Source: Bispira polyomma
Taxonomy: Eukaryota
NCBI GenBank assembly: GCA_965649765.1
Contig: OZ287761.1
Coordinates: 14,508,001 to 14,572,000, forward strand
Length of the DNA: 64,000 nt
Direction of reading: 5' to 3'
Shown: one piece after another, positions 36,701 through 59,809 of the stretch
Position numbering within the stretch: position 1 is the stretch's first letter
How the letters are laid out: the number at the start of each line of letters is the position of its first letter
Translations under genes and position numbers: made by a program
The notes under the pieces: model-generated
What the model was told of the DNA's origin: nothing
The model's database searches: none
What the model saw: only the letters and a program-made list of their open reading frames with translations

Positions 36701-39700
36701 TTTCTTTGGGTAGATGGTATATTGTATAGGCCAAATTATGTTATAATATTAGCATATATTGTGCCATGTTTCCAATGATAGTGAAAAACAAAAAGGTATC
36801 TTGGCTTCTGTTTGTATAACCCTTCAATCATTGTTGTTAAAAATTACAATCTAACTAAGTGTATTCATCGTAATTTTGTTAGGGTATATCATTTATATCA
36901 TTTTATAAGTAATGATTGAATTCACAGGGCAGCATAAAATGGGACGGTAGTAGTAAAGTGGGTCGATTTTTGAACTCTCACTAAATTTTTCTACCAACAA
37001 AATACACTCAATTATTTAATTTAACACATCACTTTCGATACTCTTTACTGATTTAGTAAATTTTAAGACACTAAATGCTCTACATAATTTTTTATTGTGG
37101 TTATAAAAGATCGACCCACTTTATGATGTCGATCCACTTCATGATAACCCGTGTACATAAAACAGTGATCCATAAAGAATAATCACCACCCTATGTTTGG
37201 CGATCGTAGTTTAGTAAGCGCCATGTAATGCAGCTTTAATATAATTATCGCTATCATTATCGCGGCGAATAATTAGGAAGTGTATTTTTACCGGCATAAT
37301 TGTTTTTAGTTGTTTTTAGATTATCGGTTGTTCTTAAGAATATACGATGGAAAAATGATTGCAATTAGATCTAGAGCAAACGTGTTTTGATATCCTAAAA
37401 TGATTTTGAAATTTTCATTTTGATTAATAATGGCATGGCGTGATACATTAATTATCACCCATTTAGCATTATCTACACAATCGTTTAGAATTACAATCTC
37501 GTCAAAATACTGGTCGACGCATACTCTAGCACACAAAACTGGCACACGGGCGTTCATATTACCGGTCTTGTAATACCTTCCGTTGTGGTTTTTAAATACT
37601 AAACCATGAAACTCCTAAATGAAAACAGATTTAACTTAAAAAAATATCAGACTACAGAAAAATATAACTTTTGTCACATATATCCATGTTTAATGTTCAT
37701 AAATATACAGTGGGGGACAGGAATTCGCTCAAAATTTACAGAAATTTGACAAATGTGAGCAAAAAGAAATAATATTGAGGCAACTCAGTAGTATTTTGTG
37801 AATTTAGAAACCAAAGTCACTGGTTAATATTGATAAAAAAGTGGACAGCATTTGGCCATTGTTAGGCAATAGTAAATATATATGTATAAGCTTTATTAAG
37901 AATAAGAATAATGTTATGAAATAGTTTATGTACGTGATATATAAAATGAGAAATAGAAAGCGAACAAAGATACAGCACAATAGCCCATCAGAAGTACTGT
38001 CTAATCCTCAACCTCACACTTTGAGCAGTACCACTGTTTATTTAGTGGAGTCAGTACATCAAATTCATTTAAAAGTTATTTTACCGGACAATACTCTATA
38101 TATTTGTATTGTAGGTATGTGCATGTTATATGTATATTATATTTGTAAAAATGGTATGCAAGCAAGTCGCGACCACAACAACTCGCACCCATCGACTCTC
38201 ACATACAAGTCGCACCCCAAATTTTAAGAAGAGCTCTAATTTAAGTCACGGTAGCGTGGATTAACAAGATATTGATTAAAGCAAATATTTATTAATGCAA
38301 ATATAATAATAAGGGATTTGTAAGATGTATAGTAAATTTATTATTTTGCCGACTGTCATCTTATTTTAAAGCACGGAAGACAAGTCGCACCCCAAATTTT
38401 AGGAGGTTTAATTGAAGTCACGGGGATTAATAAGATTTTGACAAAGGCAAATATTTAGTAATGCAAAGGAATATATAAGATGTATAGTAAATTTTATTAT
38501 TTTACCAACCATGATTTTATTTTAAAGCACGGAAGTCCCCAAAAATATATGCATTAACCACAGACTTAATAAAAAACAAGGCCCGCGGATGTTATAGTTA
38601 ATAGTTATGTAATATTTGATTAAAGAGTGGTGAAAAATGACAAATATTGAATTTAGAATGATGAAAAGTTAAGCAAATATTTATTATGTCTTATTCATAA
38701 ACGGCTATTATTCAAAAATCGGGTGCGAGTTGATGGGTGCTAGTCGTTTTAGAAGCGACTTGTTCGTATTCCATTATATTCTGCATATAATTTCCTTTAA
38801 ATTGAATTTTCGACAGTGATTAGGTGTAATAACCATATTAACGGCAAAACGCTGTCCACCACAAATCGCTATACCCCCCGAAACATCATCCGATATTATG
38901 ACCCAACCAGTATTATGAATACACATGTACTGCTACCCTGCATAAACATAATTTTGTTTGGGGTTTGAAGTGCATCGATTATTGCCCAAGGAGACTCGAT
39001 GCATCATTCAATGCATCAAAAACTCTATTTTAACCAAATAAAGTGCTGATACATACCTAGATTCTACTGGGTTTTTTTTTAACACAATATCCCTTTAAAT
39101 TTAGGTGTAAAACGAACATAAACTTCACAAATCTATTATTTATATTTGTTCTTGGCGACAATGTGCTTTTCGGTGCATACTAAAATTCGGCCAATAGGGA
39201 GTAATATATAAATGATCGAGTCACAAAGCCCAGCGCGATGTATCGTTTTTCTTGTCTCACTCGATTGATGCATCGATGCTAGTGCTAATCGTCGCAGCCT
39301 TACTACAATATATAATAGATGTTGAAATAAAATAATCAGAACTCTCTTGTGGTATATTAATTTATTCAAAACTACAAACACTGTCTAGTTTTTTTAAAGT
39401 AATTATTTTGAGATACAACTCTACTCTAGTGTCAAATCTGTTCAACTTTAAACTGTACTTTTGTGTATTCCAGCTGAATAGGCTGCAGGAAGCAAAACTA
39501 GTTTATGGCCAGCTAATAAAAGAAGACCCAGATAGCAGAATAGCAAATGCCAATATGCGGCTCATTGAAGAGAAAATGAAGACTGAGGCGGCTAAAGAAC
39601 AGAAAGCTAAGGTGGAGGACCCCAAGAAGAAATCAAAGAAAGGCAAAACTGTACGATATTTGTCACCATATTAATCATGAAAAAACATTCTATGAATATA

Positions 39701-42700
39701 ACATGTTCTTATATCAGTTGACAATAAAGTCACTGTGATATATTGCCTGTTGGACTTTGATATGTGTAAAACTGTAATACGTTTCTACTGGCAAAAATAA
39801 CACTATTTATTTTCAAATATCTTTATTTATCAGCCATCAATAAAGTCACTGATATATGGTTGGTACTGTGTGTCACTAATAGTGTCAAATTTCATATTGT
39901 GACGAGCAGTTTATTAGAGAAAGAAGAAATCAATACAGGGTAGTTGATCAATGTTTTAAGCATGGCAAATGACCGGCCTTCACCAGGTCTAATGTCGACT
40001 TTCCCACATACATTCTGTATCTGAGAATTGAACCCTGACTGGGAGGCAAGATTGTTAAGTGACCGATGCACCACCATGGTCCCTTGTTATTACAGTAAAA
40101 TGTGGATCTGTCAAAAGTACTCCGGTACTTCTTGTAGAATACAGTCATGTCTTCATACAAACTCTAAGGAAAAAAAAGTGTACCTTCTAATTGTATCCAC
40201 CGATCAGGTGGATACTTTGGTTTATCGTTGGCTACGCCACCGCCACCACCGTAGAGAGATTTTTGTCGTTAACACTCTCAGCGGAAAACAAGACCAGCTA
40301 GCTTAGCCAAATTTGCAGGATATCTTCATTGGGAGGTAAGCTTCTCTGCGACTGATATTAGCCTCATTCTGAAAAACAAGATGGCCGCCATCGGCATTTC
40401 TTTGAAAATTGTCCATCTTTTTCTACTGGCTGGTTCTCGTAACTAGAAGGTTAAATCTCTTCATAGGTGATATGTATAACAGATATATATGTCCTCTACA
40501 AGCATGCAGACATTTGACCTTGAAGTTCTTCATTGAAGGTCATTCACGGAGTGCCAAAGTACCCCACATGGCGAACTTTAAAAGTGCCCATATCTCCCTT
40601 ATTATTGGTCCTAGAGGTTTGGTATGTGAAGCCTACCTATAGGAAATCATGGGCTAGGAATCTTCTGATGTCGTCAGGTTTGACCTTGGCCCCTCATTCA
40701 AGGTCAAACAAGCTATCCAAACTTAAAAGTGCTTATAACTTGCTTATTATTGGTCCTAGAGGTTTGGCATGTGAAGCCTACCTATAGAAAATCATGGGCT
40801 GGGAAGTGCTTATAACTCGCTTATTATTTGTCCTACAGTTTGGAGATGTAAAAGCAACCTATAGGAAATCATGGGTTGGTAGTCTTCTGATGTGGTCAGG
40901 TTTGACCTTGGGCCCCTCTTCAAGGTTAAATGACAATAGCCAAACTTAAAAGTGCTTATAACTCCCTTATTATTGGTCCTACAGGTTTCAAATGTAAAAC
41001 CAACTTATAGGTAATCATGGGCTGATAATCTTTTGATGTGGTTAGATTTGACCTTGGGCCCCTCCTTCAAGGTCAGACGAGGGTAGCTATAGCTTGGGTG
41101 CTTCCTAACTATGGTGTTCTGTCTTTCTGGTGGATACAAATATGCATCGGTTTTCCAATGCGCTAGGTCTAGTTTTACCATAAAATAGGCACTAGTTATG
41201 CAATTTTTTTAGCATTTTATTAAGACCTAACTTAAGGTCTTCAGGGTTTTACACACTGGAGGGAGTTTCCTTTTAAGAGAGGTGCAATGCTGGACTACCA
41301 AAATTACATCTTGTTTCAGCCTTTATAGAAATGTATATACGTGTACATTTATTCTATTGATACCTCTATAGTTGTATGTTTAAATTATTTTTTTCTCTGT
41401 TGTTCTACAGAGTAAAGGGAAATCTGTGGATGAGAAAAAAGACAAGAAAGAAGAAGGTTACAAAGAAGAGTGGTGGTTGAAATACTGCAGGGGTGATCTG
41501 CCACCAGTGAGTTTGTGTTTTGTAGCATTTGCCTGGTGTTGTAACTGAAAAACCGGTTTAAACCAGTTGTTGGTTGGCCTCTTCATAAAAGCCAACTACC
41601 AGTTAAAACTAGTCAAAACCAGTTGTTGATCTTAGATTATATTCAGAAATTTTACATAAATGGATACACTACAGTTTCAATATTTATGTAGAACATTATA
41701 CTTTGGAGCCACCCACTGACACATGTGCTGCACAGTTTTGTGCTTTAGGATCTATAGACAGTATAATCATTTATAATTTACATTTTTCTGATTTTCTGTT
41801 TGTCGCTTGGATTTATAAACCAACAACTGACTAATGAAAAGCGAAAACCAACCTCAACCGTGTTTAAAGTGAATTTTGTTGAGTAGGAATCAGTAACTGT
41901 TAGTATTGTGAAAATTGAACGAGAAATCAAAGAAGTTGTAATTTTGCAATAACGATTACTGACAGTGTTATGTGCATATCCTTTGCAAGATATATTGCCA
42001 AATGAGGCTTCCTACAAGCTGCTTGCCGAATATACAGAATTTACAGAAATGTAGATGAATATGAAGATTCCTAAGTAGATGTAGTTATATAACGTACAGC
42101 AACATGGTGTGATTTCACCTGAAGGCTGGTAGTTTTTTCGGAGTCTCTGATGTTATTTATTTTTGCTCTTTGTATTTGTAGTATTATGAGAGGGAAACCA
42201 TGTTGAAGTCCTACATTAAGGAGATTCCGATCTCGGGGAAGAAGTATAAGGTCACGCCGCTCAGTTTATACCCACCTGTGATTCTGATTAAAGAAGTCCT
42301 GGAGAACTTCACTATCAGTAAACTCATCAACTTTGCCACAGAGGAGGTAAATTAGACATCATGAAAGCTCTGAAAAGGGGGCACTTGTTTGTATTCACAC
42401 TGTTAATTAATTTTATTGTGCCGCCTAAATTTTCTGTGATTTTTTATGAAAATTGATTTAATTTTGTATCTCTTGTCATATTTTACTTTTGTAAGCTAAC
42501 CTTTTCCTGTTAATTGGAGATGCTTTGTTTTTGTCCTGACAAAAGAAAGAAACATTTATTCGTTTTGACAGTTATAAATTTTAGTACATGTAGATGAATA
42601 TTATAATAAATGTAACTGGCAATATAAATAACAGTAGTTTTAAATTTAAGAAGACTTTAATAGTTAAAGCCTTTCTCTTATTTACCAATCAAAAACTTAT

Positions 42701-45700
42701 TTGAGGGAGTATTTCTTTTGTGAATTTAAAAAACTGAAAATCGCTTAATTTTACCAAGTTTTGCCAAATTTATTTAATTAATTAAAATGTGTTCAACTGG
42801 CAATCTGAAAGGTATAAATGATCAAGTTTCTACATATTCCTTCTTGTTAAAAGTCTTGAGGAAGTGCAACTGAACACAAGTTAACCTTGTCTCTTTAAAA
42901 CTATTTCTTTGTAGATTGTAGAAAAGATACACACTTATTCACAGCCAGATGAGGCTAGGTATAATTTATAATACCACACAAATCTTTTGGATTTTTTTTT
43001 TTTCTGGTACATTTACTTTTTTATTTTTCTCCTTATGGTTTGTCTGTGTTTTAGTTTCTGTTGGCAAAAACGTAAACGTTATATTTTGTAAACAATGGAG
43101 CACAAACAAGAATCTTTTCAGGGGTTTGTTTTGAGGGCAGAACAAGTAGTCGGTCAATCCCTATGGAGCGGTTCAGCTTGTGGCCTGAGAATTGAGTCTC
43201 ACCGCGCCTATTTTCCCACTCAATTGTAGCCTTAGTTTGTTTTAGGTTTTGTGACAGTAGAGTAAGGATGCAACCGAGGGCTGGACACTCGCTGTATGAG
43301 CCCATTTTTTCAAGGAATTGAGCCCATTTTCCCTACTCGACTACTGGCTATTATAGCAGATTATTGCTCCCACAATATAAAAGACATATAGAATATTAAC
43401 ATTTGCCAATTTTGGCCTGGTGACAGCAAATAATATTTAGGCTTTTGTCAAGTAACCTACATTTTATTGCATATGTTTTAAAATATCAGACGTTTTTTCA
43501 CAAAAACATCGCTGCGGGAAATGGCCATATTTGTTTCTGGTGTTTCCAATTGGTAAATACTAAAACTCGCAAGTACCCGAATTCGAGTCGAGTTTCCGAG
43601 AACGAGCACTCAAAGCATTTTTTTTGCACCCGTCCCACCCCTACAGTACAGTAAAAATAAATATAAGTCTAAGACATAATAGACTTGAAAAAGAAGAAAT
43701 AACACAGCAATAACACCATTCGATAAAAACCAAAACATTGAACTGTCCTTGATATTACTGTAGATTCTCTGTAAGTCAAATGTCTAATATTTACCGGATT
43801 TGGTTCTATGTATGGAAATATTCTAGTTTTATACCCAGTTTATGGATAATAATTATTTTGGATGTTGAGAACAGATAATTGGTTCTAGTTATAGAGAACT
43901 TTGACTTACCCTGATGCTAGTTACAGAAAATCTACGGTACATCATTGTTATATTATAATACGACTATTATAATCTTTTAAAGAGCATAATTCCATCAAAA
44001 GCTGACTTCATTTCTTGATTACAGTGAAAGCTCATCTAGATGTTGTAAACCGCCAAATATCTAAGGCCTGAAATGAAATAATGTCCTCACTTTTTGATTG
44101 TTTTGTCCTTCTGGGAAGTAGCTTTGAATATCACACCTGCTCCCAAGTTTATTGAGCAAAGGTGTTTGCCCTGGGAAATATATATTTTATATGTTAGTTC
44201 CCATTCACTTAAAGTGATAGTAGAAGATGATTTTTTTGTCAGTATCCAAATTTTAAAACTGGTACCCTTAAAACAACAGCAGCTTGTGACCAAAGTTTTT
44301 CAGTGAAACCTATGTTTTCCGAACTTCTGTTTTCCAAATATTCAAGTTCACAAACTCATTTCAACTCTCCCAAATTTATCTTTTTCTATTGCTCGATAAA
44401 CCAAAAATAAAATGGCTTTCGATTTTATAAATAAAGTAGAAATTCCATTTATCCAAACAAAATGTTGCTCTCTCCCAACATGCCTGGCTAATTGAGGTTC
44501 TATGCTGTACTAATATACTGCCTCTTTAAATAGTGGCAGTTTGCAGTGTTTTCGTTGGAAATTTTTTTTTAAGATACATGTAATACTTATTATGTCTTCT
44601 GGATATATTATGTTCAGTTTGTGTATTATTTTAAAAAAATATTTTTTTTTTGTGTACTATTTTTTTAGAAAAGTACAATCTTTAATTAGTTAGAACCATT
44701 CAGTTTCTGGGGTTGGGTGTTTGTTATATTTAAGGACATTGTGATGATAAATATTAAAAATTTTCGAAATCATTAAAATTACAGTCAAATTTGTGTAGAA
44801 GATGACTGACCGTGGGAATCAGTAAAAATGGTTGCATGTAGAGATCGGTCGTTCTGTGAACCTATCGGTCATCACCAAAGTTGTCGATAATCAGAGATTG
44901 TGTAAAATTTTTCTTTAACTAGATCGTTGTTGTACATGCTATTAACACATAATCCCTTCTAATAGTTAATTCTATATATTATATAATTCTATTCGTGTAT
45001 TTTACTTTGTATAGTTAACTGAATTTGTCTCCCACAAGCTATGCTTAGTTTTCAAGAGTCATTTGACAAACTCCTTCCAAAAGTTTTGTTTGAGTTAACT
45101 CGGTCTGCCATTCAACTCGTGAAAAGTAGAAAACTTTGTTTTAAAACTCTCTTTAGACCAAAGTGCTTCTGTAATTTAATCGGGTGCATATGTACTTTCA
45201 GTGCACCTGTGTTCTGGAATGATGAGACTTACTGGATGGAGAAGTTCACCGTCACCATGCGTAACCTAACTTACCAGAAGTACAGTGTGGAGAGCCACGC
45301 GAAACTCAACCTGCTTGGGGCGGTTAGGGTGAGTGAGTAGTACGTACAGTCAAGAATCAAATACAGTGCTATGTAAAGCGCCTAAATCAATGAAATGTGA
45401 TAGTACAGTCAAAAATTCTATTGTATTTTATAAAAGTGAAACCCTGTTAAGTCAAATCTAAAGGGACCATAAAAATTTGTACCACTTAACAGAAATTCTA
45501 CTTCATCAGAGGTAAATTTCAATTACAAATATAGCAGTGAGACATTATAATAACTTCTACTGAACAGGTAATTCTACTTATTACAGTTCTACTTGAAGGG
45601 GTTTAACTGTATATATACTTTAGGCACTTTATTTATGCGAGGCATCTTCTTTAAACCAAATCAATTCAACCAATCATGTGTCCCAACAACAGAGCTTGGG

Positions 45701-48700
45701 TCGTTTTTCATCCACAGGTAATGGCGTGTATAGACATCTTCCCCAAATGATGTTATCCCACCCATTGAACCTAGCAGCATTACTTTTCTGATCACCAGAC
45801 TCCTCCCTGATAACCACTAGGCCATGGGAGACCATCAGTAACATATGTATGGCGTATTATATATATGTTACACCTAAAAAGTACATGTCACTGTTGTATT
45901 TGAACCTGACTGAGTCAGAACTCAAAAGATCAGCTTGTGTTCTTTTTGCCACCCAGTCTTAGAATGCAATTCTTAAGAATTTTTCTTAGCCTCAGAAATT
46001 TAGATTCTTTTGAGAAAAAAAAATATTCTCAACCAATCAAATTGCTTGAAACAAAAACTTTTAAGACAATGAATCCTTGTGAATACCAGCGCAGGATAAG
46101 GACTTCAACTTAAGCAGGAGTTCTTACTTAACGAGGTTGTGTTTAAAGTGGAAAATTCCTTTGTGGTTGGAGGACTACAGACATTTCTCCTGACCTAAAA
46201 GGGAAATTGACCGTTTTTAGGGGGATTTTCAGGTTTTCCTATTGTTGGTGATCGACTGTACAGTTATATTGTACATTTTGAACGTGCCTTATTGATGTGA
46301 GGCATCTTCTAAAGCACAACGACAGAATCAAATGAACCAATTTAAAAGTCCCAAAAACATATCCAAGGTCATAAGGAAGGAGGGAATTAAGTGGAGTGAG
46401 CGAGTTTTAAAAAAATAAGTTTTTTTTCTAAACCTGAAAAGTGTGTCTGGTGATCTAAACAGGGAGACTACTCCATAAGATCGGCGCAGAAATTAAGAAA
46501 GCTCTAGATCCAGCGCTCTTTGTGGGTTTTACAGAGAAAACAGAAAGTCTCTTTCTTCTTTTTCTTTCAATTTATATGTTTATATCTTACAGGTGTACAA
46601 TGTAGGAGCAGGTGGCACTTCAAATCCTGGACGTGGTGAATTGAAAGTGACGCCTCGATCTGTAAGTTGCCCTTCTACAGATAAAAAAGTCTGTTTAATC
46701 AAATTTCGCGGGGGACATGACTTTTGGTCCGATAAATGGGATATTCGGATACACTGAAGGCCTACATAACAATACATGTTTGAGTGGACAAATGGGGGTG
46801 AAAATTGGGGACTTTACCTTTGATTTTAACATTAAAACTGTCACTACCAAAGCTTGCATTACACTGGTATCACAATAATTAGGTGGTAATTCCATGAAAT
46901 ATTAACTCTTCTAGTAAACTACAGGTTAAATCCTTTACTATTTAGAAGGTCCACTCAGTTAATCTGGATTTTCGGATAAACGGACGGTTGGTTAAATAGA
47001 GAGGTCTGTTATACAGAATTCTTCTGTACTTGATGTCCTTCTTTAGAAAACTTGTTGCGATGAAAGGTCTAAAGCCTATATATTCACTTAACCCCTTAGA
47101 TACCATGTCTGTCGACTGGCATTCGACAGTGAAGTCTATTCACTAGTGCCATGTCCGTCGACCAGCAGCCGACACCCCCATAATATTGTTTTACTTTCCT
47201 GCAGTACAGCATAATTGAAATGGCTTAATATATTGGAGTTCCTCGATTAAAATATCATATATGAGTGCATTATGAAAACCCCCAGAATTGCCTGTAAGTG
47301 AGTGTTTTAATGACTTCAGCTATCTGTAACCTTATTTCTGTGAATTTCCTTCGGTATATGTGAAGACTGTTCCCTTGGTGGCAAAGGGGTTAAATGTGAA
47401 GAGATAATTATGGTAATCATGGAGTGTTTTTTTTTTTATAAAAAGCCTTTAATGATACACGCACTGCACTCTCTTTTAATTTGTATGATTTTACATGTAG
47501 AATAATTTACAGTATAACCTCTGTTGTCGGACCCTCTGTATCCAAATATTCTATTTTATAAACTCAATTTCCCTCTCCCAAACTATATTCTTAAATCCTA
47601 CTTTCTTTCTCCTATCTCCAAAGATGTCCGTAAAATAGAGCTTCTACTATATGTAGTGAGGCACCTCAAATAATGTTATCATTTTATTGATTTTACCATT
47701 CTCTTATTCAGTGATTCAATGATATGTGTCCCCAAAAAAGTTGCGAATAATAATGAAATCAATATCTAAAACAAGAAGATAGTAGTCAGAGACTGCAAAA
47801 CCTCGCCCAGAAATTCAATCACGGACTTGCAAATTGGTGATTGGGGTTAATATATTGAGTAAGGTGTACTTTACTTTTAAATATGAAGTTAGGGTTATTA
47901 TTTCTAAAAATTAAATAGAAATGGGGTATATAGTCAACATAATAATATATTACATCAGAATGTACACTACCATTAGTGCTAGTTTGTGACGTCAAATTGG
48001 GGTTATTATATGAATTATATCGGCCAGAAACGGCTTATTTTATTGAAAGGTGTATTTTATTTCAAAATATGAAGTTAGGGTTATTATGTTGAATATAAAC
48101 ACCATTTCCATAGCTGTAAAATGAGACGTGTTTCAAGTTATTTTTTATGGTAACAAATCTGTACCTCTTGGCTTTCAGATTTGTATTGTGACATCATAAT
48201 GGAAGGTTTTTGAATGCAAAAAAACTACAGAGTTTTGGGTTGTTTGAATATGGTCATAGTGAACAAATTAATCCCTCAATTCTTTGAAAATTACGATATA
48301 TATAAAATATAAGCAATATTTAATGTTATTGTGTACAAAACCTGATTTTTAGAGTGGTAGAAATTTGTATTTGAAGCTAATTCTGTAAGGTCACAACTCA
48401 GTACTTTTTGTATGTAATTTGCCGCGAATTTTCAATATTTTGGATCTATTTCTGACTGTTTGGTGTTATATTTTGACCTACATAAGCATAATAATACCCT
48501 TTTATAAGTGGATAATAAAAGAAAAACCTCCTTTGTGGTGTATATTACAAACATATACACCATTCCAGTAGTTTTCCTATTATATTACATCGTGTACGCT
48601 ACCATTAGTGCTACATTGTGACATCATAATCAGAAATTGTGTATGAATGATATTTTGATGACGTAATGATGACGTCATCATATTTCATATACATCCCCAA

Positions 48701-51700
48701 TCTTGGAGTCGGTGTAGCTTCGGTTTGCCCAACGCTGTCTTTCTTTTTTTTAATATTATGCAAATGATCCGTGATCTCGGAGTCAGTGTAGCTTCGGTTT
48801 GCCGAACGCTGTCTTCGTTTCTTATATGTGGCGCAGAATTTAAGAGATCTTCAGAGCTATTTTTGTATATAAAAAAAGGAAATCTTGTCTTAAAGCTACA
48901 GTTCACAACCGATCTGTATGTAGATTTTGTGTAATAGTGGTTTGTACACTCACACACACAAACACACAAACCGAAAACAAAGGGCAAGGTTAATGATGAT
49001 ATTTTAACTGTACTAAATGTACAGTACAACCTCTATTATTCAAATAAGTTGGATGAGAGCTAGATTTTGTTTGGATAATAAAAGATTAAAATAAAATCGA
49101 TGAGACATATTAGTACAAAACAATAAGAAAATGTGAATTTGGGAGAGTGGAAATATGTTCATAAAATTAAATATTTGGATAATAGAAGTTCAGATAATGC
49201 AGGTTTTACTATATTATTTTTCAAATTAATTGATTAATGGGATGTAATAACTGTAATGAATATATTAATTACTAAATGAATTCATCAATGTGATGTTTTA
49301 ATTGTATGAAATATATTAAATTCTAAATTAGTCGATTAATGTATATATGTTTTAACTGTATTAAATGTATTAATTTATAAATCAATGATTTTAATGGTGA
49401 TGATTGTTTTAATTTTTCAGACTTGGGAAAAGAATTATATTGGACGATATGTTCTGTTTGTAAGTAGATTTTATTTATACAGTAGGTTGAATGTTTTCCC
49501 AGAGAAAGTTGAATCTTTCTATTTAAAAAGGGAACCAATTGTGAAAATAAACTACGGTGAAATTTGATCAAGCTCCTTTTCTGCTATTAATACAACATTT
49601 GTTTTGTGGAAGGTTTATTTCAATTATTTCTTATTTTATTTCTTGTACTAAGTACATTCAAAGTTTTACAAACAAAAAGTTGAACCACTATTTATATACA
49701 AAATAAGGTTTAAAGAAAATGAAAAAAAGAAAAGAAAAAGTTAATAAGTACTTGATATATATCATATCAACCTGTTATATTTGATCCATCTTTAAAAATC
49801 AACCTGTCATATTTTATCCATCTGTTAAACATTCACCTATATAATTGTATAACGACATATATATATATTTTCAATCCAATGTGACGCAATTTGTTGTGTC
49901 AGCATTGATTAGAATATGCAGTTTCCACTTCTGGTGCAATTGTATCCACTTAATCAGTAGAAACCCTTTAAAAAAGATTTTTTTTGAAAGGAGAAGTGTT
50001 ATAAAAAGTGTTTGTTATCAATCCTTTCTGTTCGTCCAAGAAAAATGTGTACAATTTGAAAAAAATATATACAAATATGAGATGTTCCTTATTTTCAGTT
50101 GAAACCACCTAAAGCTGGCGGCCATTTTGCGTTTCCATGGTTGCGGGTGAGCGTGAAACCCGAGAAGGGAGACATTCTGTTCTGGCAGTTCCGTACACCG
50201 ACTGGCAAGGTTCACCCACGGGTCCAACACTGGCTGGAGTGTCCAGTTATCCTGGGAGACTTCTGGTGTAAGTCCACTTGGTGTTATACTTCACCCTTTC
50301 GACTAGTGGGGTGCGACTGTGTAGCAAAAATTTGGGTCTGGGATATCGTTTGACAAAAATCGTCCCGATTCTTGAGAACACATGTGCATGATCCCTCAAA
50401 ATGACCTATTTTAGGATTCAATAGATATACAGTGTAACCCTGTTAAGTCGAATTTGAAGGGACTATAACATTTGTTCTATTTAACAGGAATTCTACTTAA
50501 CAGGGTAAATTTCAATTAGAAGTATAGCAATATGATCTTATAATTACTTATACGTACCAGGTAATTCCACTTAACAGAATTCTACTAAAAGGAGTTTGAC
50601 TGTTATTTGTTTGCAGTAAAAAGCCTGCATTTTCGGAATTACGGTATCTTTATTTAATCAACTTATTCAGAAAATCTGTTACCAATAGTGTATATTAACC
50701 CTTTCTCAACCTAAAAAAAAGATTACAGATAGCTGGAGTCATAAAAACACACACCACAAATTACTTCCGGCATTATATAACGGCCCCGCGTATAATTTTG
50801 TTTTTATATAGGCATTTAAATGTATATTATGACATTGAGTTACCAAACTGACGTCATCAATACATAATTATGACGTTATTATGACGTGTAACAGTAGCAG
50901 AAATAAAAAAAATAAAATATGCATATATTTGTAAATATACAGGCTTAGTTAAGACAATAACAGCAGGTTTGTCATTTGTAGAGTCCAAGATTTCCATTAA
51001 TACCCCAAAACTCTGGCCAATTGCATCCACAAACCCATTAAACACACTTGTGTTTAGTAGTATAGGTAATCGTAAATTTTTTTTTTATTTACACTTGTCG
51101 AAATTCTAATGTTTATATGACAGACATATTATATTGGTGTAGGTTCACATTGAAGACATAACATCCGTAAAATGTTTCAATAAATTACACTGCTAGAAAT
51201 TTTGATTGTCTATGTTGTTTGTAAAGATAATAAATAAAAGGGTGATAAAAAGAGTAATTTTTAGTATCAAAGTACAGGTACCAAAACTAAAATTTGAATT
51301 TATTTGAGTTAAAATTCACTTTCAACGGCTTATGTTATATTATGACAACCAGATTTAATGGTGGAGGAAACCAATGCTAAAGCATGGTGTAAACCACTGT
51401 CCTATGGATGGTACCTATCAAAACTTTTCCACATGACGGAATGAACACGATTCAAACCCACGCTGGTAAGAGGCCAGTGATTTTGAAGCAGGGGCTTCTA
51501 ATGCGGCCCCTATATTCTCTATTGTAAACATTTTATTATCTAAAAATTTTTGGAGTTGAACTGAGTTTAGTATAAATTGAATATTCGGACACTAGAGGTT
51601 CAGATAATGGAGGTTCTGTTGCACATTACTACAATCTTTTTTTGGTTTACTTTATTTTATCTACAGATGCTGAGCAGATGATAGAACATAACAATATGAT

Positions 51701-53994
51701 AGACAAAGTGGACTTATCTTACATTCCCGAAGTTATAAAGAAATCTGACAATGGTTCAAAAAAGAAGAAAATATTAAAAAAGAAGAAAAAAGTGGTGAAA
51801 AAGGAGGAAGAAGGTAAATAAGAGTTAATGTTGCACCATGTGAAGTCAATTCATAGTTAACATTGAACCCTGTAAAATAAATTCTTATACAGTCGAACCC
51901 CTTTATGTAAAGCTCTGTTAACTCAATTTCCTGTTTATGTGGAACAAAATTTCTGGTCTCAAAAAGGTATTTTCTTTTATAATCTATCCTGTTAATTGGA
52001 AATCCTGTTTTAGTAGAAGTATTTCTACTGGTCCCTTGAGGTTCGACTTAAAGGGGTGCAACTGTTTATGTAGTTAACCTGTGTGAAGTCAATTCTTATA
52101 GTTAACATTGAATTTTTGTAAAGTCAATTCTTATAGTTAACAATGAACCCTGTGTGAAGTCAATTCTTATAGTTACATTGAATTTTGTGAAGTCAATTCT
52201 TATAGTTAACATTAAGCCATGTGTGAAGTCAATTCTTATCGCTAACATTGAACCCTGTGTGAAGTCAATTCTTATAGTTACTAATGTGAGTCAACTCTTA
52301 TAGTTTTAACCCTGGACCCTGTATGAAGTCAATTTTTATAGTTAACTTTGAACCCTGTGAAGTTATTTCGGTGCTAGATATAGCTAAACTTGATGTCATA
52401 TGTGATGCCATAAACATCTCAACTGTTGCATTGGCTGTGATGAAGGTGTAAATTATGACATTTGCTTTTGAGTCTTACAGTAGCAAAATTTTTTATCCAA
52501 AAGATCATTGTAAAGATGACACCTTACTTAAAATAATAACGTCAAAATATTCATTTCTGAAGGTCAAGCTTTTCATCAATACCCGCCTCAAAAATGCAGT
52601 CTAGAAACAGCACATGTAAAAATCATAATGGTTTTACCACTTTTCAGTCTGATAATAAATATCTTATGCATGTCTCTAAACAAGTTTTAATAATAGAGGA
52701 TCCACTCTAATGGCCTTTTGATTACGACTGAACTTATCTGATCATGGGTTTATATGATGGGTATACAAATGTAGCTTGCTTGGAATTAATAAGGAATACA
52801 GTAGACTCTGCATGAGTCAAATGTTCATTATCCACAGGATTTTACTTGACTTATGGCTAACTTTTACTTATATGTGTGTAGGTTTATAGTCTGACATCAC
52901 TTCTATTGACTTTACAATTTACACCCCCCAGCCTGGGTTCTTCCACTTGTCAACCAATTGTTCAGTCTCAGCTCCTTCAGCAAGCATACTAGCCATGCTG
53001 TCACATAAGGCGCAACGACTAACACCAATTAGCAGCCAGGAACCCATTTATACACCTGGGTGGAGAGGGACAAGTTTCGTGTGAAGCACCTTTCCCAAGG
53101 GTACAATCTCCTGGCCTGCAGCAAGGATAGAACCTGGACCCTGAGATCCAAAGTCATACACACTAAACACTAGGCTACAGAGACCATGGGGTGGCACTAT
53201 AGAAGTAAATCATTAACATTAATAATATTTACCCTCTTAACTATTGTTTTATACAGAAGAAGAGGAGGAAGAGGAGGATGAAGCTCCAGTGGAAGAGCCT
53301 GAAGAGGATGAAGAGGAGGTTGAAGAAGATGTCGAAATGGATGAAGAAGAAGCAGAGGTAGAGGAGGATGAAGAGAAAAAAGAAGTGCCCAAGAAGAAGG
53401 TGGTTAAGAAAACTGTCTCCAAAACAAAGGTCAGAACATTGTATTGTAGAAGTAGGCTTTGTTCGTAGCAATTATGTTAGTTTATAAATGTTTTTTCAAA
53501 TAGCGGAATGTAGCTTAAAATTGTCCTTTTTAAAGCAGATTTTACACGCATAAGGTAACATTAGGCGATAATAAGATAGTTTATGACAGTTAGAAAGAAA
53601 TAGTTTATAATAGTTTATGTTGTTCAGATGATCGAGATTCTATTGTTAATTCTATGTAAATGTATCATGTGATTAGACTTCCTTCTGAATTTAGTTCACA
53701 CTGGCTGTAGACAGGTTTTCCATTTTATTTATATTTTCTTAAATTTTTCAGGATAAGATGAAAGAACCCAAGGAGAAGAAGCATCCAAAGGAAGCCAGAA
53801 GTAAGTCTGAGGAAAAAGAAGTCAAAGCTAAGATGGCAGATAAAGAGAAGCCAGCCACCAAGGCAACAAAGGAAGCCAAGGGGAAGCCAGATGAGAAGAA
53901 AAAGGAAGACATGAAAGTTGAGAAGGAGAAGGTGGTCGTTAAAAAAAAGAAAGTAAAGAAAACAAAAACCAAGAAAAAGGCAGTCAAAAAGTGA
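33714..53994 (+). CDS. Prolyl 4-hydroxylase alpha subunit-like protein (divergent, predicted catalytically inactive) with signal peptide and long Lys/Glu-rich C-terminal tail; 16 exons, 759 aa
   Basis: Exons 33714-34057, 34602-34765, 35107-35213, 35494-35625, 36017-36100, 39474-39650, 41411-41506, 42182-42346, 42915-42958, 45202-45328, 46593-46661, 49421-49459, 50099-50267, 51667-51813, 53257-53429, 53752-53994. All AG/GT; phases join into one open frame of 2280 nt. P4HA landmarks in order: signal peptide MAKLGFLGYSLCLTFFWICGINC, FVNNPLAMFSIRKRLADTW, DLEMAYEDILRLQKAYNL, TPR-like ALEWL/DPDSRIANAN, YCRG, VYNVGAGG, AGGHFAFP..V.PEKG..LFW, CPVILG. Confidence 0.88.
38153..38772. mobile_element. Non-autonomous TIR element with an internal ~175-bp tandem duplication
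   Basis: Imperfect ~45-bp TIRs (CAAGTCGC..AACTCGCACCCATC / GATGGGTGCTAGTCG..GCGACTTG); the unit ACAAGTCGCACCCCAAATTTTA..TTTTAAAGCACGGAAG occurs twice. Confidence 0.7.
40191..41174 (+). mobile_element. Helentron-associated non-autonomous element (HINE / DINE-1-like)
   Basis: 5' TTGTATCCACC with adjacent inverted copy GGTGGATAC, (CCA/CCG)n microsatellite, central ~150-bp tandem repeats (AAAGTGCTTATAACT..TTGACCTTG), 3' subTIR GGTGGATACAA (41129-41139), hairpin GCATCGG-TTTT-CCAATGC, end CTAGTT. Confidence 0.8.
47092..47389. mobile_element. piggyBac-like non-autonomous element
   Basis: TTAA|CCCCTTAGATACCA ... TGGTGGCAAAGGGG|TTAA. Confidence 0.7.
51823..52366. repeat. ~36-38 bp minisatellite interrupted by a MITE (51890-52064)
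   Basis: Unit TGAAGTCAATTCTTATAGTTAACATTGAACCCTGTG, about 2 copies before and about 8 after the MITE. Confidence 0.85.
52928..53185 (-). mobile_element. tRNA-derived SINE (family B)
   Basis: Same sequence family as 8012-8315 (CCCAGCCTGGGTT..TTCAGTCTCAGCTCC..CCTGGGTGGAGAG..ACAGAGACC). Confidence 0.8.
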
Positions 53995-54241
53995 TAAAGT
54001 AGAGGATGCGCAGTAGAGACTTTATTATTATATTCAATTTTATGTAACGTAAGAAACATATGCACAATAGAACAACAAAACCATGAAACTGGAGCAAATG
54101 GATAGAATATAAATCCTGATGTTAAATTTTTTGAAGAAAACTAAAGCCAAGAAAAATACTGCCAAAAGTAGTAAAAGTACAAGAACAATAAATTACATGA
54201 ATTACAGCGGAACTTTATGATATTAGTGTATTCACAAAAGA

Positions 54242-54300
54242 AATAAACTTAACAAGAATAGAGTGACCCAGCTGAACAGAAAAGAATAAGCTGGAATAAA
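54242..54300 (+). terminator. Candidate polyadenylation signals of the P4HA-like gene
   Basis: AATAAA at 54242-54247 and 54295-54300, 250-300 nt after the stop and followed by T-rich sequence. Confidence 0.4.
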
Positions 54301-55841
54301 TGTATATAATATAATTTTATTTAGTTTCCGTTATTAAAATCATTCAACTACCTGGGACTGTTAATGCTGTATTACTAGTCTGTGCTTTTTCATGTTATCC
54401 TATGATGTATGCATTCATCCAGAACCATCTCTTAATTGTTTAGTCATGTTTGGGTAAATGGATCTTCCAAATGTTTCATATAGTTAACATATCAGGGACT
54501 GTATCCAAACATCAGATGCAGTATTTATATAATTAAAATATACATTAGTTTTAGGTACATTGGCTGTTGTGTACTATTCTAATACTGAATAATGTATGTG
54601 TACTTTATCTGCTGTTGATATGTGACATACAATGCATTCTATATCTTCATCAGTATATCTGTTCACGTGTTTGTTTATGCTTCAATGACATTATCCATGG
54701 TATTCTATATATTACAAAAAATAAACAAGAATGAAGTAAACCTAGATGAAATATTCGATACAGAAGGTCTTTTCTTCTTGTAATTCCTCTAACATTTATA
54801 TTAAGTACATATGAAGACAAAACAGAGAAGATGTTTTTGATAATCGTCTGACCCATAATTTTCCAATTGAACATATAATCCAGTGACCTTGGCCGTAGAC
54901 ATCTTATTTTTTACCAAGGAAGCACAAAGATGAAGTACAGAGTAACAAAAATCAGTAAAAGAAAGTAGATGATCTTTGTCTTTGCAAAAGAACAAGGTCA
55001 TGACGTTTAGAATTTTGGTCAGACAATTTGTGACTGACCATACAATTGGGGGAAAGTTTGTGTTTAATGGAAACACTGATATATCTGCGACTCTTTTTTT
55101 ACAACCTTTTCTTTGCACAGTTCAATTTAATTTGGTCACAGGAAACTATGCCACCCGATGGTCTTGCTTAGGTGTAATCATCTAGTCAACCTCCTGGTGT
55201 CTTAATGATCTTTATCTGTCACTGTGGCCCCCTTAGTAACACTTAGGAACAGACGACCTGGGTTTTATCACAGCCTTGGGGAAGCAAGGTACCGGCAAAT
55301 ACCTATTCGTTCAAATGACCACTTTAAATGGCCCTATCCCTGGTGGCAGGCTTGAGAACTTTAGAGATGTTTATAATGGCCATTCTCAAAACTTTCTTTT
55401 CAGTGTTCTACATAACCGTTTTCTGTGGTTATAACAATATACCACTGTAACGATAAATTATACAGGTAATTGAAATAGAAATACTTATATTGAGTAAATA
55501 CTATTAAATCAAAACTTATCCAACTTTTGTTATATCGGTGTATATCCCTGCATTAAACATTTAGGCTTCCAGGGTTTCCCTTTTAGCTCTACTGTTCTTG
55601 TACTAGAATATTAATCTCAAGATCCATGACAACCCAGAATCGAATCCCAGCAGTAACAAGCCTCTTTATAAGTTTACAGCAGAGCCAAGTGATTTCTGTG
55701 GTTTACATTTAGTAAATTGTTTATATCCCTTTATTTTAACAGGTACAATTGAAACAACTCCGATTTGCAATTTAATCAACTCCCAAACACTTAAAAATAT
55801 TTAATATACAAGTATTCTATTTTTATTCTATCATCGTTCTC

Positions 55842-57628: not shown

Positions 57629-58855
57629 CTAATCTAATCTAATCTAATCTAGTCGTACTTTTATAGCGCTTAATCTTTGTACAACAAATTCTAAGGCGCA
57701 ACAAACCCAAAACGTTAATCAAAAATCAAAAATAGTGGGCGGATGGCAGTCGTAACCAGGGAGACTACCGTAAATGGTTGCGACGGCTAAGGTGGAAAAG
57801 CCTGTTCAAAAAGATAGGCCTTCAGCTTACTCCTGAAAGAGGAGAAAGTTTGTGCCAGGCAAACATGATCAGGTAGGCTGTTCCAAATGAGGGGGGCCAT
57901 CATGAGCTAGGCAGTGATTGAACTGAACTTTGGATTTGTGGATGCGAGGGTTGAAAGTGGGAATGTTAAGGTATAATTTATCAGGGTTACTGCGCCGTGT
58001 CCTGACTGAGCATGTATATTTGGATAGATGGGGGCTAAAATAAGTGGGTAATCCAGAATTTAGAAATTTATGTATTATTGTTGCTGTTTTGAAAGCAACA
58101 CGATATTTTATTGGGAGCCAGTGCAGTGAATTGAGTACAGGAGTAATGTGGGAAAATTTAGATGTTTTGGTCACAATACGTGCCAACGAGTGTTGGATAT
58201 TCTGAAGGCGTCTGAGATCACTACGAGATAAGGAACAGAACAAAGAGTTGCAGTAATCAAGCCTGCTGCTGACCAAAGCATTGGCAACAGTGATTGCAGT
58301 GGATTTGGAAAGATAGCATCGAATCCGCCTGAAATCACGGAGGCCAACAAAACATGATCTACACACCGATGCGACATGGTTAGAGAAGGAGAATTCAGAG
58401 TCGAACACCACACCCAGGTTTCGTACTTTGTCAGCTGGAAAAAACCTGCTGCCAAGAATGTCAAGTGGAAAACAGCTAGACAATTTTTCCCATTGCGACT
58501 TGGAGCCAAACAAAATAAACTCAGTCTTCTTAGGGTTCAGCTTGAGTTTATTTGCTGCCATCCAATGTTGTACATCAACAAGGCAGTTCTGTAAGGAAGT
58601 GAAAGCTGCCTTGGCAGAGTCAAGTGTAAGGTGGATATACAGTTGGGTATCATCAGCATAGAAGTGAAAGTTTATGTTTTTGTATGCAGCAATAATCTTG
58701 CTGAGTGGAGTGGTGTACATGGAAAACAAAATGGGACCCAGGACGGAACCTTGGGAAACCCCAAATTTTAACCATGTTGGGTCAGATAAGATATTGCCAA
58801 TTTTGACTGATTGGAATCTATCAGACAAATATGCAGTGAACCACTTAAGCACCAT
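57629..58855 (-). mobile_element. 5'-truncated L2/CR1-group LINE (RT C-terminal half and 3' end)
   Basis: ORF 57869-58855 with GVSQGSVLGP, YADD, LKLNPKKTE, SRLDYCNSL, LHWLPI. The 3' end terminates in a (GATTA)n tail (57629-57651). Confidence 0.92.
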
Positions 58856-59809
58856 ACCGTCATTTCGTTGTCATGTACAATATTTCAGCATTGATACCTT
58901 CTTGGTATGTGTATTGTGTCACATTTGTGAAGGATGTACTTGGACAAATATTCATGTTTTTCTTACAATTTTACACCAACTTATACGTAGTAATTGTTGC
59001 TGAAACATTGTTAAAATCAATTTTCCAATTGATAAAATTTAGCTTAAATTGTTATTTATTCTGTTTCCTATCATTTTGGCAACTCATAAAGCAAAAATCG
59101 TATTTAAAAATCGACTTTAAGGCCTTCACAACAATGTAGTGTATGTTTCTTGACAGTGATTCTTTCACAACGTGGTTTAGTGGCGATTGTTTTTTGTGTT
59201 TACGTTACTAGAGCCTTAAAAAAAACAATAGTAAGAAATAAAGAAGTCTTGTACTGTCTGAAGATAATATCAACCAAAATAAATACAAAAAATACAACTG
59301 TTTCTAAATTAATTTATTATTATCCTTGTAGCCCTAATTTATTATTAAGAAATTATTATAAAATAAAAAATTGTGTGCTATTATATAATAAACTGAGTAA
59401 CAACAAACCTTTCTATTTATGACGCTACTGTGGTCAATCATTCTGGGTACCATCAATCTGATACAAATTTAATAGCATACATACCACAATTAATTAAAAC
59501 TACAATTATTAAATAAATCTAACCCAGATAATTACTCCAGAAATAATACATAACACCATAATACTGAATTAAGTACATACAAATGATATAGTCAATACCT
59601 AAATTTATGTTTCGGCTTATCTCTATGACGTGTAATTTTTATTTTTGGATGTTATCTTGTGTGTTTTTTTTGTTTGTTTTTTTTATAAAAATTCTTTTGG
59701 CTTCAACGTTAACTTTGTGCGCTAACTTTATAACGCCTTCCAGATGGTCCTAAACTTTTGATATCAGTGTAAATGTAATGTTTATGTCGTTGTACTCACT
59801 TAGCTACAC

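Follow-up and report, generated by a model that had tools for sequence, protein, structure and literature searches.

What becomes of a collagen prolyl 4-hydroxylase alpha subunit (P4HA) that has acquired a long charged tail, and is it still an enzyme? The question is raised by a gene of the annelid Bispira polyomma that lies in a stretch of 64,000 nucleotides (the window) on contig OZ287761.1 (C14; positions 14,508,001 to 14,572,000, forward strand) of assembly GCA_965649765.1, which comprises 1.04 Gb in 75 contigs. This genome gives three above-cut-off matches to the annelid erythrocruorin linker family, in line with an annelid host. Sixteen exons are predicted on the plus strand between window positions 33714 and 53994; all 15 introns are bounded by GT and AG, and the exons form a single open frame of 2280 coding bases and 759 amino acids that ends with a TGA at 53992-53994 (Table 1). 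The predicted product resembles human P4HA2 (PDB 7zsc, PF08336) in its predicted signal peptide, N-domain, TPR/PSB domain, catalytic-type domain, Cys pair and the phase-1 intron after the exon with the CPV motif. It differs in that the His-x-Asp...His iron site, the Tyr/Thr/Lys set for 2-oxoglutarate (2OG), Cys311, Cys529 and the LLIA-type patch are all gone. Judged from sequence, it is a predicted catalytically dead P4HA-like protein, and the joint loss of catalysis and of the contacts with protein disulfide isomerase (PDI) appears better supported than any role of the tail.

The residues in question are known from the structural work in PMC9676403, which assigns His430, Asp432 and His501 as iron ligands, Tyr421, Thr467 and Lys511 as 2OG contacts, Cys294-Cys504 as an intrachain pair, Cys311 and Cys529 as links to PDI, and an LLIA patch as the element that enters the PDI b' domain. 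The register of human P4HA2 was mapped onto the window protein via the intact paralog L002. None of the three iron ligands is kept, as G493, G495 and W561 occupy the His-x-Asp...His positions, and V484, F526 and Q576 replace Tyr421, Thr467 and Lys511. The position of Cys311, which links to the PDI a' domain, is S378, and the b' contact, LLIA in human and PYVV-like in the paralogs, aligns to SGKK. Since there is no Cys between 362 and 564, nor any beyond 564, both PDI-linking Cys are absent under any alignment. The intrachain pair is retained as C362 and C564, which presumably still form the bond. The proline-binding groove, whose residues are named in PMC12433258, was aligned by eye with the paralog C6a, and the equivalent of Asn227 alone is kept; the intact L002 and L003 also diverge there. 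A C-terminal 2OG-dioxygenase-type domain is present by homology of exon 13 to 7zsc (E value 3.5e-4), while a Pfam scan of single exons found no 2OG family. Although its end branch is as long as 2.95 changes per column, the frame of 2280 coding bases over 16 exons remains open; together with the 64% identity of the relative P0001 at exon 13, this argues for constraint on the protein.

When exon 13 was used in a full HMMER scan, 31 matches were returned. Four sequences from ENA/Logan (P0001, P0008, P0015 and P0017) have FWQF[RK] and [EQ]CP in common, along with an additional residue ahead of the Cys and a Trp or Tyr in place of the third His. P0001 (64% identity over exon 13), P0015 and P0017 are exon fragments that do not extend to the C-terminus. 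P0008 spans the C-terminal half, carries the dead motif, retains the equivalent of Cys311 and is tail-less, its C-terminus lying 24 residues past CP; it matches 7zsc with an E value of 7.9e-11, and its Atlas model gives TM scores of 0.71-0.78 to P4HA clusters. The best match of P0008 in the Bispira genome is the window protein, and the two group at 100/100 in the tree, both on long branches. The paralogs, and to all appearance P0015 and P0017, have an intron within exon 13 that is missing from the window gene and P0001; its absence possibly marks these two as a closer subgroup.

Another candidate relative, P0009 (XP_074662426.1, annotated 'P4HA2-like'), comes from the nemertean Tubulanus polymorphus. 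Both of its iron His are replaced (F, W) and it has neither Cys529 nor a tail; the Asp, the Lys and the Cys311 equivalent are kept. Of 14 proteins compared with the window protein, it has the highest full-length score (107 bits vs 74 for the next full-length protein). In two trees it did not group with the window protein, but a single clade was not rejected (p=0.33 in the approximately unbiased test). In a back-search of the genome with P0009 the window exon ranked below two intronless paralogs, a ranking that is biased by exon length. Three dead proteins are long enough for comparison (n=3), and of these the sole loser of the Cys311 equivalent is the sole bearer of a tail. As a dead relative is tail-less, the tail is not the core function of the subfamily. 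Word-indexed protein searches gave no candidate with exon 13, 0/3043 with P0008 and only P0008 itself among 1235 with a subfamily profile, which is weak evidence of absence, and metagenome scans confirmed 0/115 and 0/62 pattern matches. Four representatives (P0003, P0005, P0006 and P0022) were dropped as unrelated, their matches being driven by repeats.

Family and protein searches found at least nine other collagen-type P4HA genes in the genome, two of them intronless on C14, three on C6 and four on C2, as well as one additional P4H-like gene on C11; these counts are lower bounds. In all eight aligned paralogs the His-x-Asp, His, Tyr, Thr, Lys and Cys529 are intact, and the ninth shows the same motifs. 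All nine intact paralogs end soon after CPV without a tail, and seven outside reference proteins, a few of them with single substitutions, end 30-51 residues after CP. The window protein has 193 residues after CPV, compared with about 30-35 in ordinary P4HA. Since both the nine paralogs and the outside references are tail-less, a charged tail is not standard.

The paralogs have features of their own. The two intronless genes, L002 (C14:19385012-19386688) and L003 (C14:5978070-5979707), are intact, are sister to an intron-bearing C6 pair in both trees and are likely retrocopies. The four C2 paralogs (22.26-22.34 Mb and 30.04-30.06 Mb) carry several inserted six-cysteine modules, which we take to be ShK-like. 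In one C6 paralog an exon is present in two versions and part of a second exon in about six tandem copies (C6:51124749-51125454 and 51137051-51137962), and the paralog at C6:12.98 Mb has a PSB exon in two versions; mutually exclusive splicing of these duplicated exons is possible.

The tail comprises the last 156 residues, of which 55 are basic and 51 acidic (net +4, charged fraction 0.68, net charge per residue 0.03). A basic block at 604-618 (11 K in 15 residues) is followed by an acid block at 619-661, in which 34 of 43 residues are D or E and none is basic. A first reading of this DNA, made from the sequence alone (the sequence-only reading), had described a basic-acidic-basic order. The first two blocks agree with this description; the final 98 residues (44 of them basic, 17 acidic) are not purely basic, as basic ends at 662-681 and 741-759 flank a well-mixed K/E stretch at 682-740 (kappa 0.03). 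The charge-segregation parameter kappa of the whole tail, computed with an approximate routine, is 0.40 against 0.117 ± 0.033 in 500 shuffles (maximum 0.249), so that the charge blockiness noted in the sequence-only reading exceeds every shuffle (0/500 as high). The sequence charge decoration is -15.6 against -2.1 ± 1.5. With high charge, near-zero net charge and segregated charges, the tail is a strong block polyampholyte. That reading was also right that the tail is unusual for P4HA, given its absence from the nine intact collagen-type paralogs, and that the protein has no KDEL-type end and no transmembrane segment, since the signal-like N-terminal segment is the sole hydrophobic 19-mer peak in the hydropathy profile. 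Two Lys-rich inserts had been noted as well; the one in exons 6-7 is a charged linker at 311-356 (18 basic, 11 acidic), whereas the one in exon 1 is matched by a segment of similar length in L002 and L003.

The tail has 0 Tyr, 0 Cys, 3 Ser, 1 His and 1 Arg, and Pro, Glu, Val and Lys make up 77% of it (120/156; window 51760-53991). Its codons are nearly evenly divided between synonyms (Glu 23/19, Lys 23/31), a pattern more typical of coding DNA than of a microsatellite. The motif KKKV(V)KK occurs three times, across three exons, and together with the composition gives the tail a possible resemblance to the PEVK segments of titin.

Do the tail exons belong to this gene? In 7/7 collagen-type paralogs with introns, the Trp behind CPV is followed by a phase-1 intron and then by a terminal exon of 23-27 residues. 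The window gene has the same phase-1 intron after its CPV exon. Compared with P0008, the start of exon 14 ranks 2/333 among the open acceptor-led downstream peptides, and compared with active enzymes 6/333; all peptides that outrank it lie at distances of over 2.7 kb from exon 13. Exon 14 thus most probably represents an extended form of the original terminal exon, a homology that places it in the P4HA-like gene. The possibility that the tail exons form a separate gene, which the sequence-only reading had named as a case against itself, was rejected for this reason, and no other downstream coding gene was seen in the window. Exons 14-16 join exon 13 in phase (1,1,0) with GT-AG ends throughout; the assignment of exons 15 and 16 remains a prediction from splice sites, phase and frame, and composition. 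When a splice matrix trained on the first 12 introns only was applied to the tail junctions, the donors of exons 13, 14 and 15 fell at percentiles 98.8, 98.1 and 90.1 among 1242 local GT sites, and the acceptors of exons 14, 15 and 16 at 96.5, 98.6 and 99.5 among 1206 AG sites. Introns 13-15 hold seven further acceptors above the 95th percentile.

Contigs from three DNA runs cover exons 15-16 with zero differences at single depth in 3/3 runs, and exon 14 is covered by a zero-difference contig in every run. These are DNA-like contigs from at most two samples, possibly the source of the assembly itself, and serve as a check of the assembly only. A genome search with exon 16 found exon 16 as its sole match, and an Atlas search with the same exon gave no usable match. 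A repeat or transposon as the source of the tail was rejected on the flat depth and the single genome match. The tail was probably added within this lineage; the ancestral last exon would have lost its stop and two new exons would have been recruited.

How might such a protein behave without PDI? A normal P4HA alpha subunit needs PDI for solubility and for retention in the endoplasmic reticulum (ER) (PMC12340787, PMC9676403), where it is held through PDI (PMC3799842, PMC12340787), and failure of KDEL retrieval leads to secretion of the fly PH4alphaSG1 (PMC3799842). The sequence-only reading had treated the protein as secretory and noted the missing KDEL signal. None of the nine intact paralogs has a KDEL-type end, and P4HA is retained via PDI; thus the missing signal is uninformative, and the loss of three PDI contacts would be the better argument for secretion. 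Charged segments adjoin both PDI-facing elements, as the linker at 311-356 immediately precedes the first and the tail starts just past the second. The reading we favour, to which we give somewhat less than an even chance, is a PDI-independent pseudoenzyme that leaves the ER as a dimer. It would dimerise through its N-domain, and the linker and tail would shield the PDI face left vacant, so that the protein likely folds without PDI and is likely kept soluble by these charged segments. Lacking the KDEL of PDI, the dimer would exit the ER and is likely secreted, and its two flexible charged arms could then bind polyions or divalent cations in a cuticle, mucus or tube layer. A more far-reaching version we consider unlikely: an old lophotrochozoan (annelid and nemertean) dead lineage would have cut its tie to PDI stepwise, and here would have become a secreted dimeric scaffold whose block-charged arms take the place of the chaperone subunit and cause condensation in cuticle, mucus or tube when triggered by ions or polyanions.

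Several observations weigh against the PDI-independent pseudoenzyme. The groove looks degenerate and indicates no binding partner. The disulfides to PDI may be transient (PMC9676403), in which case PDI binding could persist without them, and retention could also be achieved by pairing with an active alpha subunit. P0008 is without the Cys529 equivalent and the hydrophobic patch, yet tail-less. Our searches found no full-length ortholog and no ortholog with a tail. At the level of splicing, the exon 15 donor is comparatively weak, outscoring only about 90% of the local GT sites, and reading through the exon 14 donor would yield a protein that stops after the first basic block.

Retention by pairing leads to the strongest rival, which we regard as possible but clearly less probable than the reading we favour. 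The protein may be an ER-resident non-catalytic partner of an active P4HA, held by the PDI of this partner, that tunes or chaperones collagen hydroxylation, with the acid block as a low-affinity Ca2+ buffer by analogy with calreticulin-type tails. The P4Ha_N domain is the best-kept domain, nine intact paralogs are on hand as partners, and hetero-pairing of non-catalytic fly P4HA-like proteins has been speculated (PMC12340787). The protein has no retrieval motif, however, the tail is near neutral (+4) rather than acidic, with as many Lys as Asp and Glu together, and the groove aligned by eye with C6a keeps just the Asn227 equivalent.

It is less likely, and in our view rather improbable, that the function lies in the dead fold and that the tail is an extension of low complexity, confined to this lineage and under little constraint, or else part of a minor isoform. 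Two dead proteins without a tail, P0008 and P0009, as well as the weaker exon 15 donor and several alternative strong acceptors in introns 13-15, would suit such a view. A charge order that none of 500 shuffles reaches at kappa 0.40, the even split of Glu and Lys codons, unlike a simple repeat, and the threefold KKKV(V)KK across three exons with fitting phases all speak against it.

Slightly less probable again is a role devoted to glue, mineral binding or coacervation in the tube or mucus, the strongest proposal of the sequence-only reading, which overlaps the favoured pseudoenzyme. The tail kappa, approximate as it is, exceeds the 0.22-0.24 of the phase-separating Ddx4 and Nephrin regions (PMC7503639), and tubeworm glue is packaged via complex coacervation (PMC12621633). 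The sabellariid cement proteins Pc-1 to Pc-5 are likewise secreted charged annelid proteins packaged in this way. They differ in being separate polycations and phosphoserine polyanions, rich in DOPA (3,4-dihydroxyphenylalanine), phosphoserine and His and with no enzyme fold (PMC12621633), a chemistry missing from the tail with its 0 Tyr/DOPA, few Ser, 1 His and 1 Arg. Thus the polyampholyte pattern of the tail fits the adhesive role raised in the sequence-only reading, whereas the composition is unlike tubeworm cement; the shell role raised there is unlikely in an annelid. The salt of seawater would also screen simple pairing of Lys and Glu. Finally, it is very improbable that the protein remains an active oxygenase whose metal site has been rebuilt, or that the gene is a decaying pseudogene. 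His560 adjoins the third ligand position, which would suit an active enzyme, but it was rejected as an iron ligand on its presence in only 2/5 subfamily members; exon 11 encodes zero His, and the frame and 15 introns are intact.

Expansions of P4HA are already known. The PH4alpha-related set of Drosophila (SG1, CG34041 and the accessory-gland genes) contains divergent, gland-tied paralogs, one of them without a catalytic domain (PMC12340787). SG1 differs from the window protein as an ER resident by KDEL retrieval (PMC3799842), and the accessible text on the set mentions no charged tail. Pseudoenzymes are common, at 8% of enzyme-like fly genes (PMC12869072). A literature search of incomplete coverage found no account of a catalytically dead annelid P4HA uncoupled from PDI, nor of a tail of this kind. 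As the P4HA alpha subunit is held to be insoluble without PDI, the window paralog offers a test of the role of PDI and of the tail as a possible substitute for it. It also flags a dead P4HA subfamily whose members are labelled ordinary P4HA in databases. If the protein is secreted, it would represent a switch from enzyme to material in annelid extracellular layers.

Table 1. Features of the predicted P4HA-like gene in the window (positions are those of the window).
Feature	Position	Strand	Description
Exon 1	33714..34057	+	ATG, signal-peptide-like segment, beginning of N-terminal dimerisation domain
Exon 2	34602-34765	+	P4Ha_N dimerisation domain; Pfam PF08336 28.4 bits vs cut-off 25.3 with exon 2 alone
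Exon 3	35107-35213	+	P4Ha_N dimerisation domain; PF08336 E value 0.005
Exons 4-6	35494-35625, 36017-36100, 39474-39650	+	TPR/PSB-like domain; apparently degenerate proline-binding groove; charged linker begins
Exons 7-8	41411-41506, 42182-42346	+	K/E-rich linker, Cys362, Ser378, SGKK
Exons 9-12	42915-42958, 45202-45328, 46593-46661, 49421-49459	+	Catalytic-type domain; exon 11 with Gly493-x-Gly495 and zero His
Exon 13	50099-50267	+	FWQFR motif, Trp561, Cys564 (CPV); PDB 7zsc match, E value 3.5e-4
Exon 14	51667-51813	+	Probable homologue of the ancestral terminal exon; Gln576, no Cys; extended with first basic block
Exon 15	53257-53429	+	Bulk of acid block and second basic patch
Exon 16	53752-53994	+	Mixed K/E stretch, terminal basic block, stop
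Candidate polyadenylation hexamers	54187..54725	+	6 AATAAA/ATTAAA sites; weak evidence in AT-rich DNA

Other elements were seen in and around the window. Frames at 25461-28893 (+) and 57872-58870 (-) resemble, by eye, endonuclease and reverse transcriptase pieces of non-LTR (long terminal repeat) retrotransposons, and about 20-25 kb to the right of the window on C14 (L085) overlapping long frames look, also by eye, like a DIRS-type retroelement. Intron 14 contains a degenerate tandem array at window positions 52060-52370 with a unit of about 35-40 bases.

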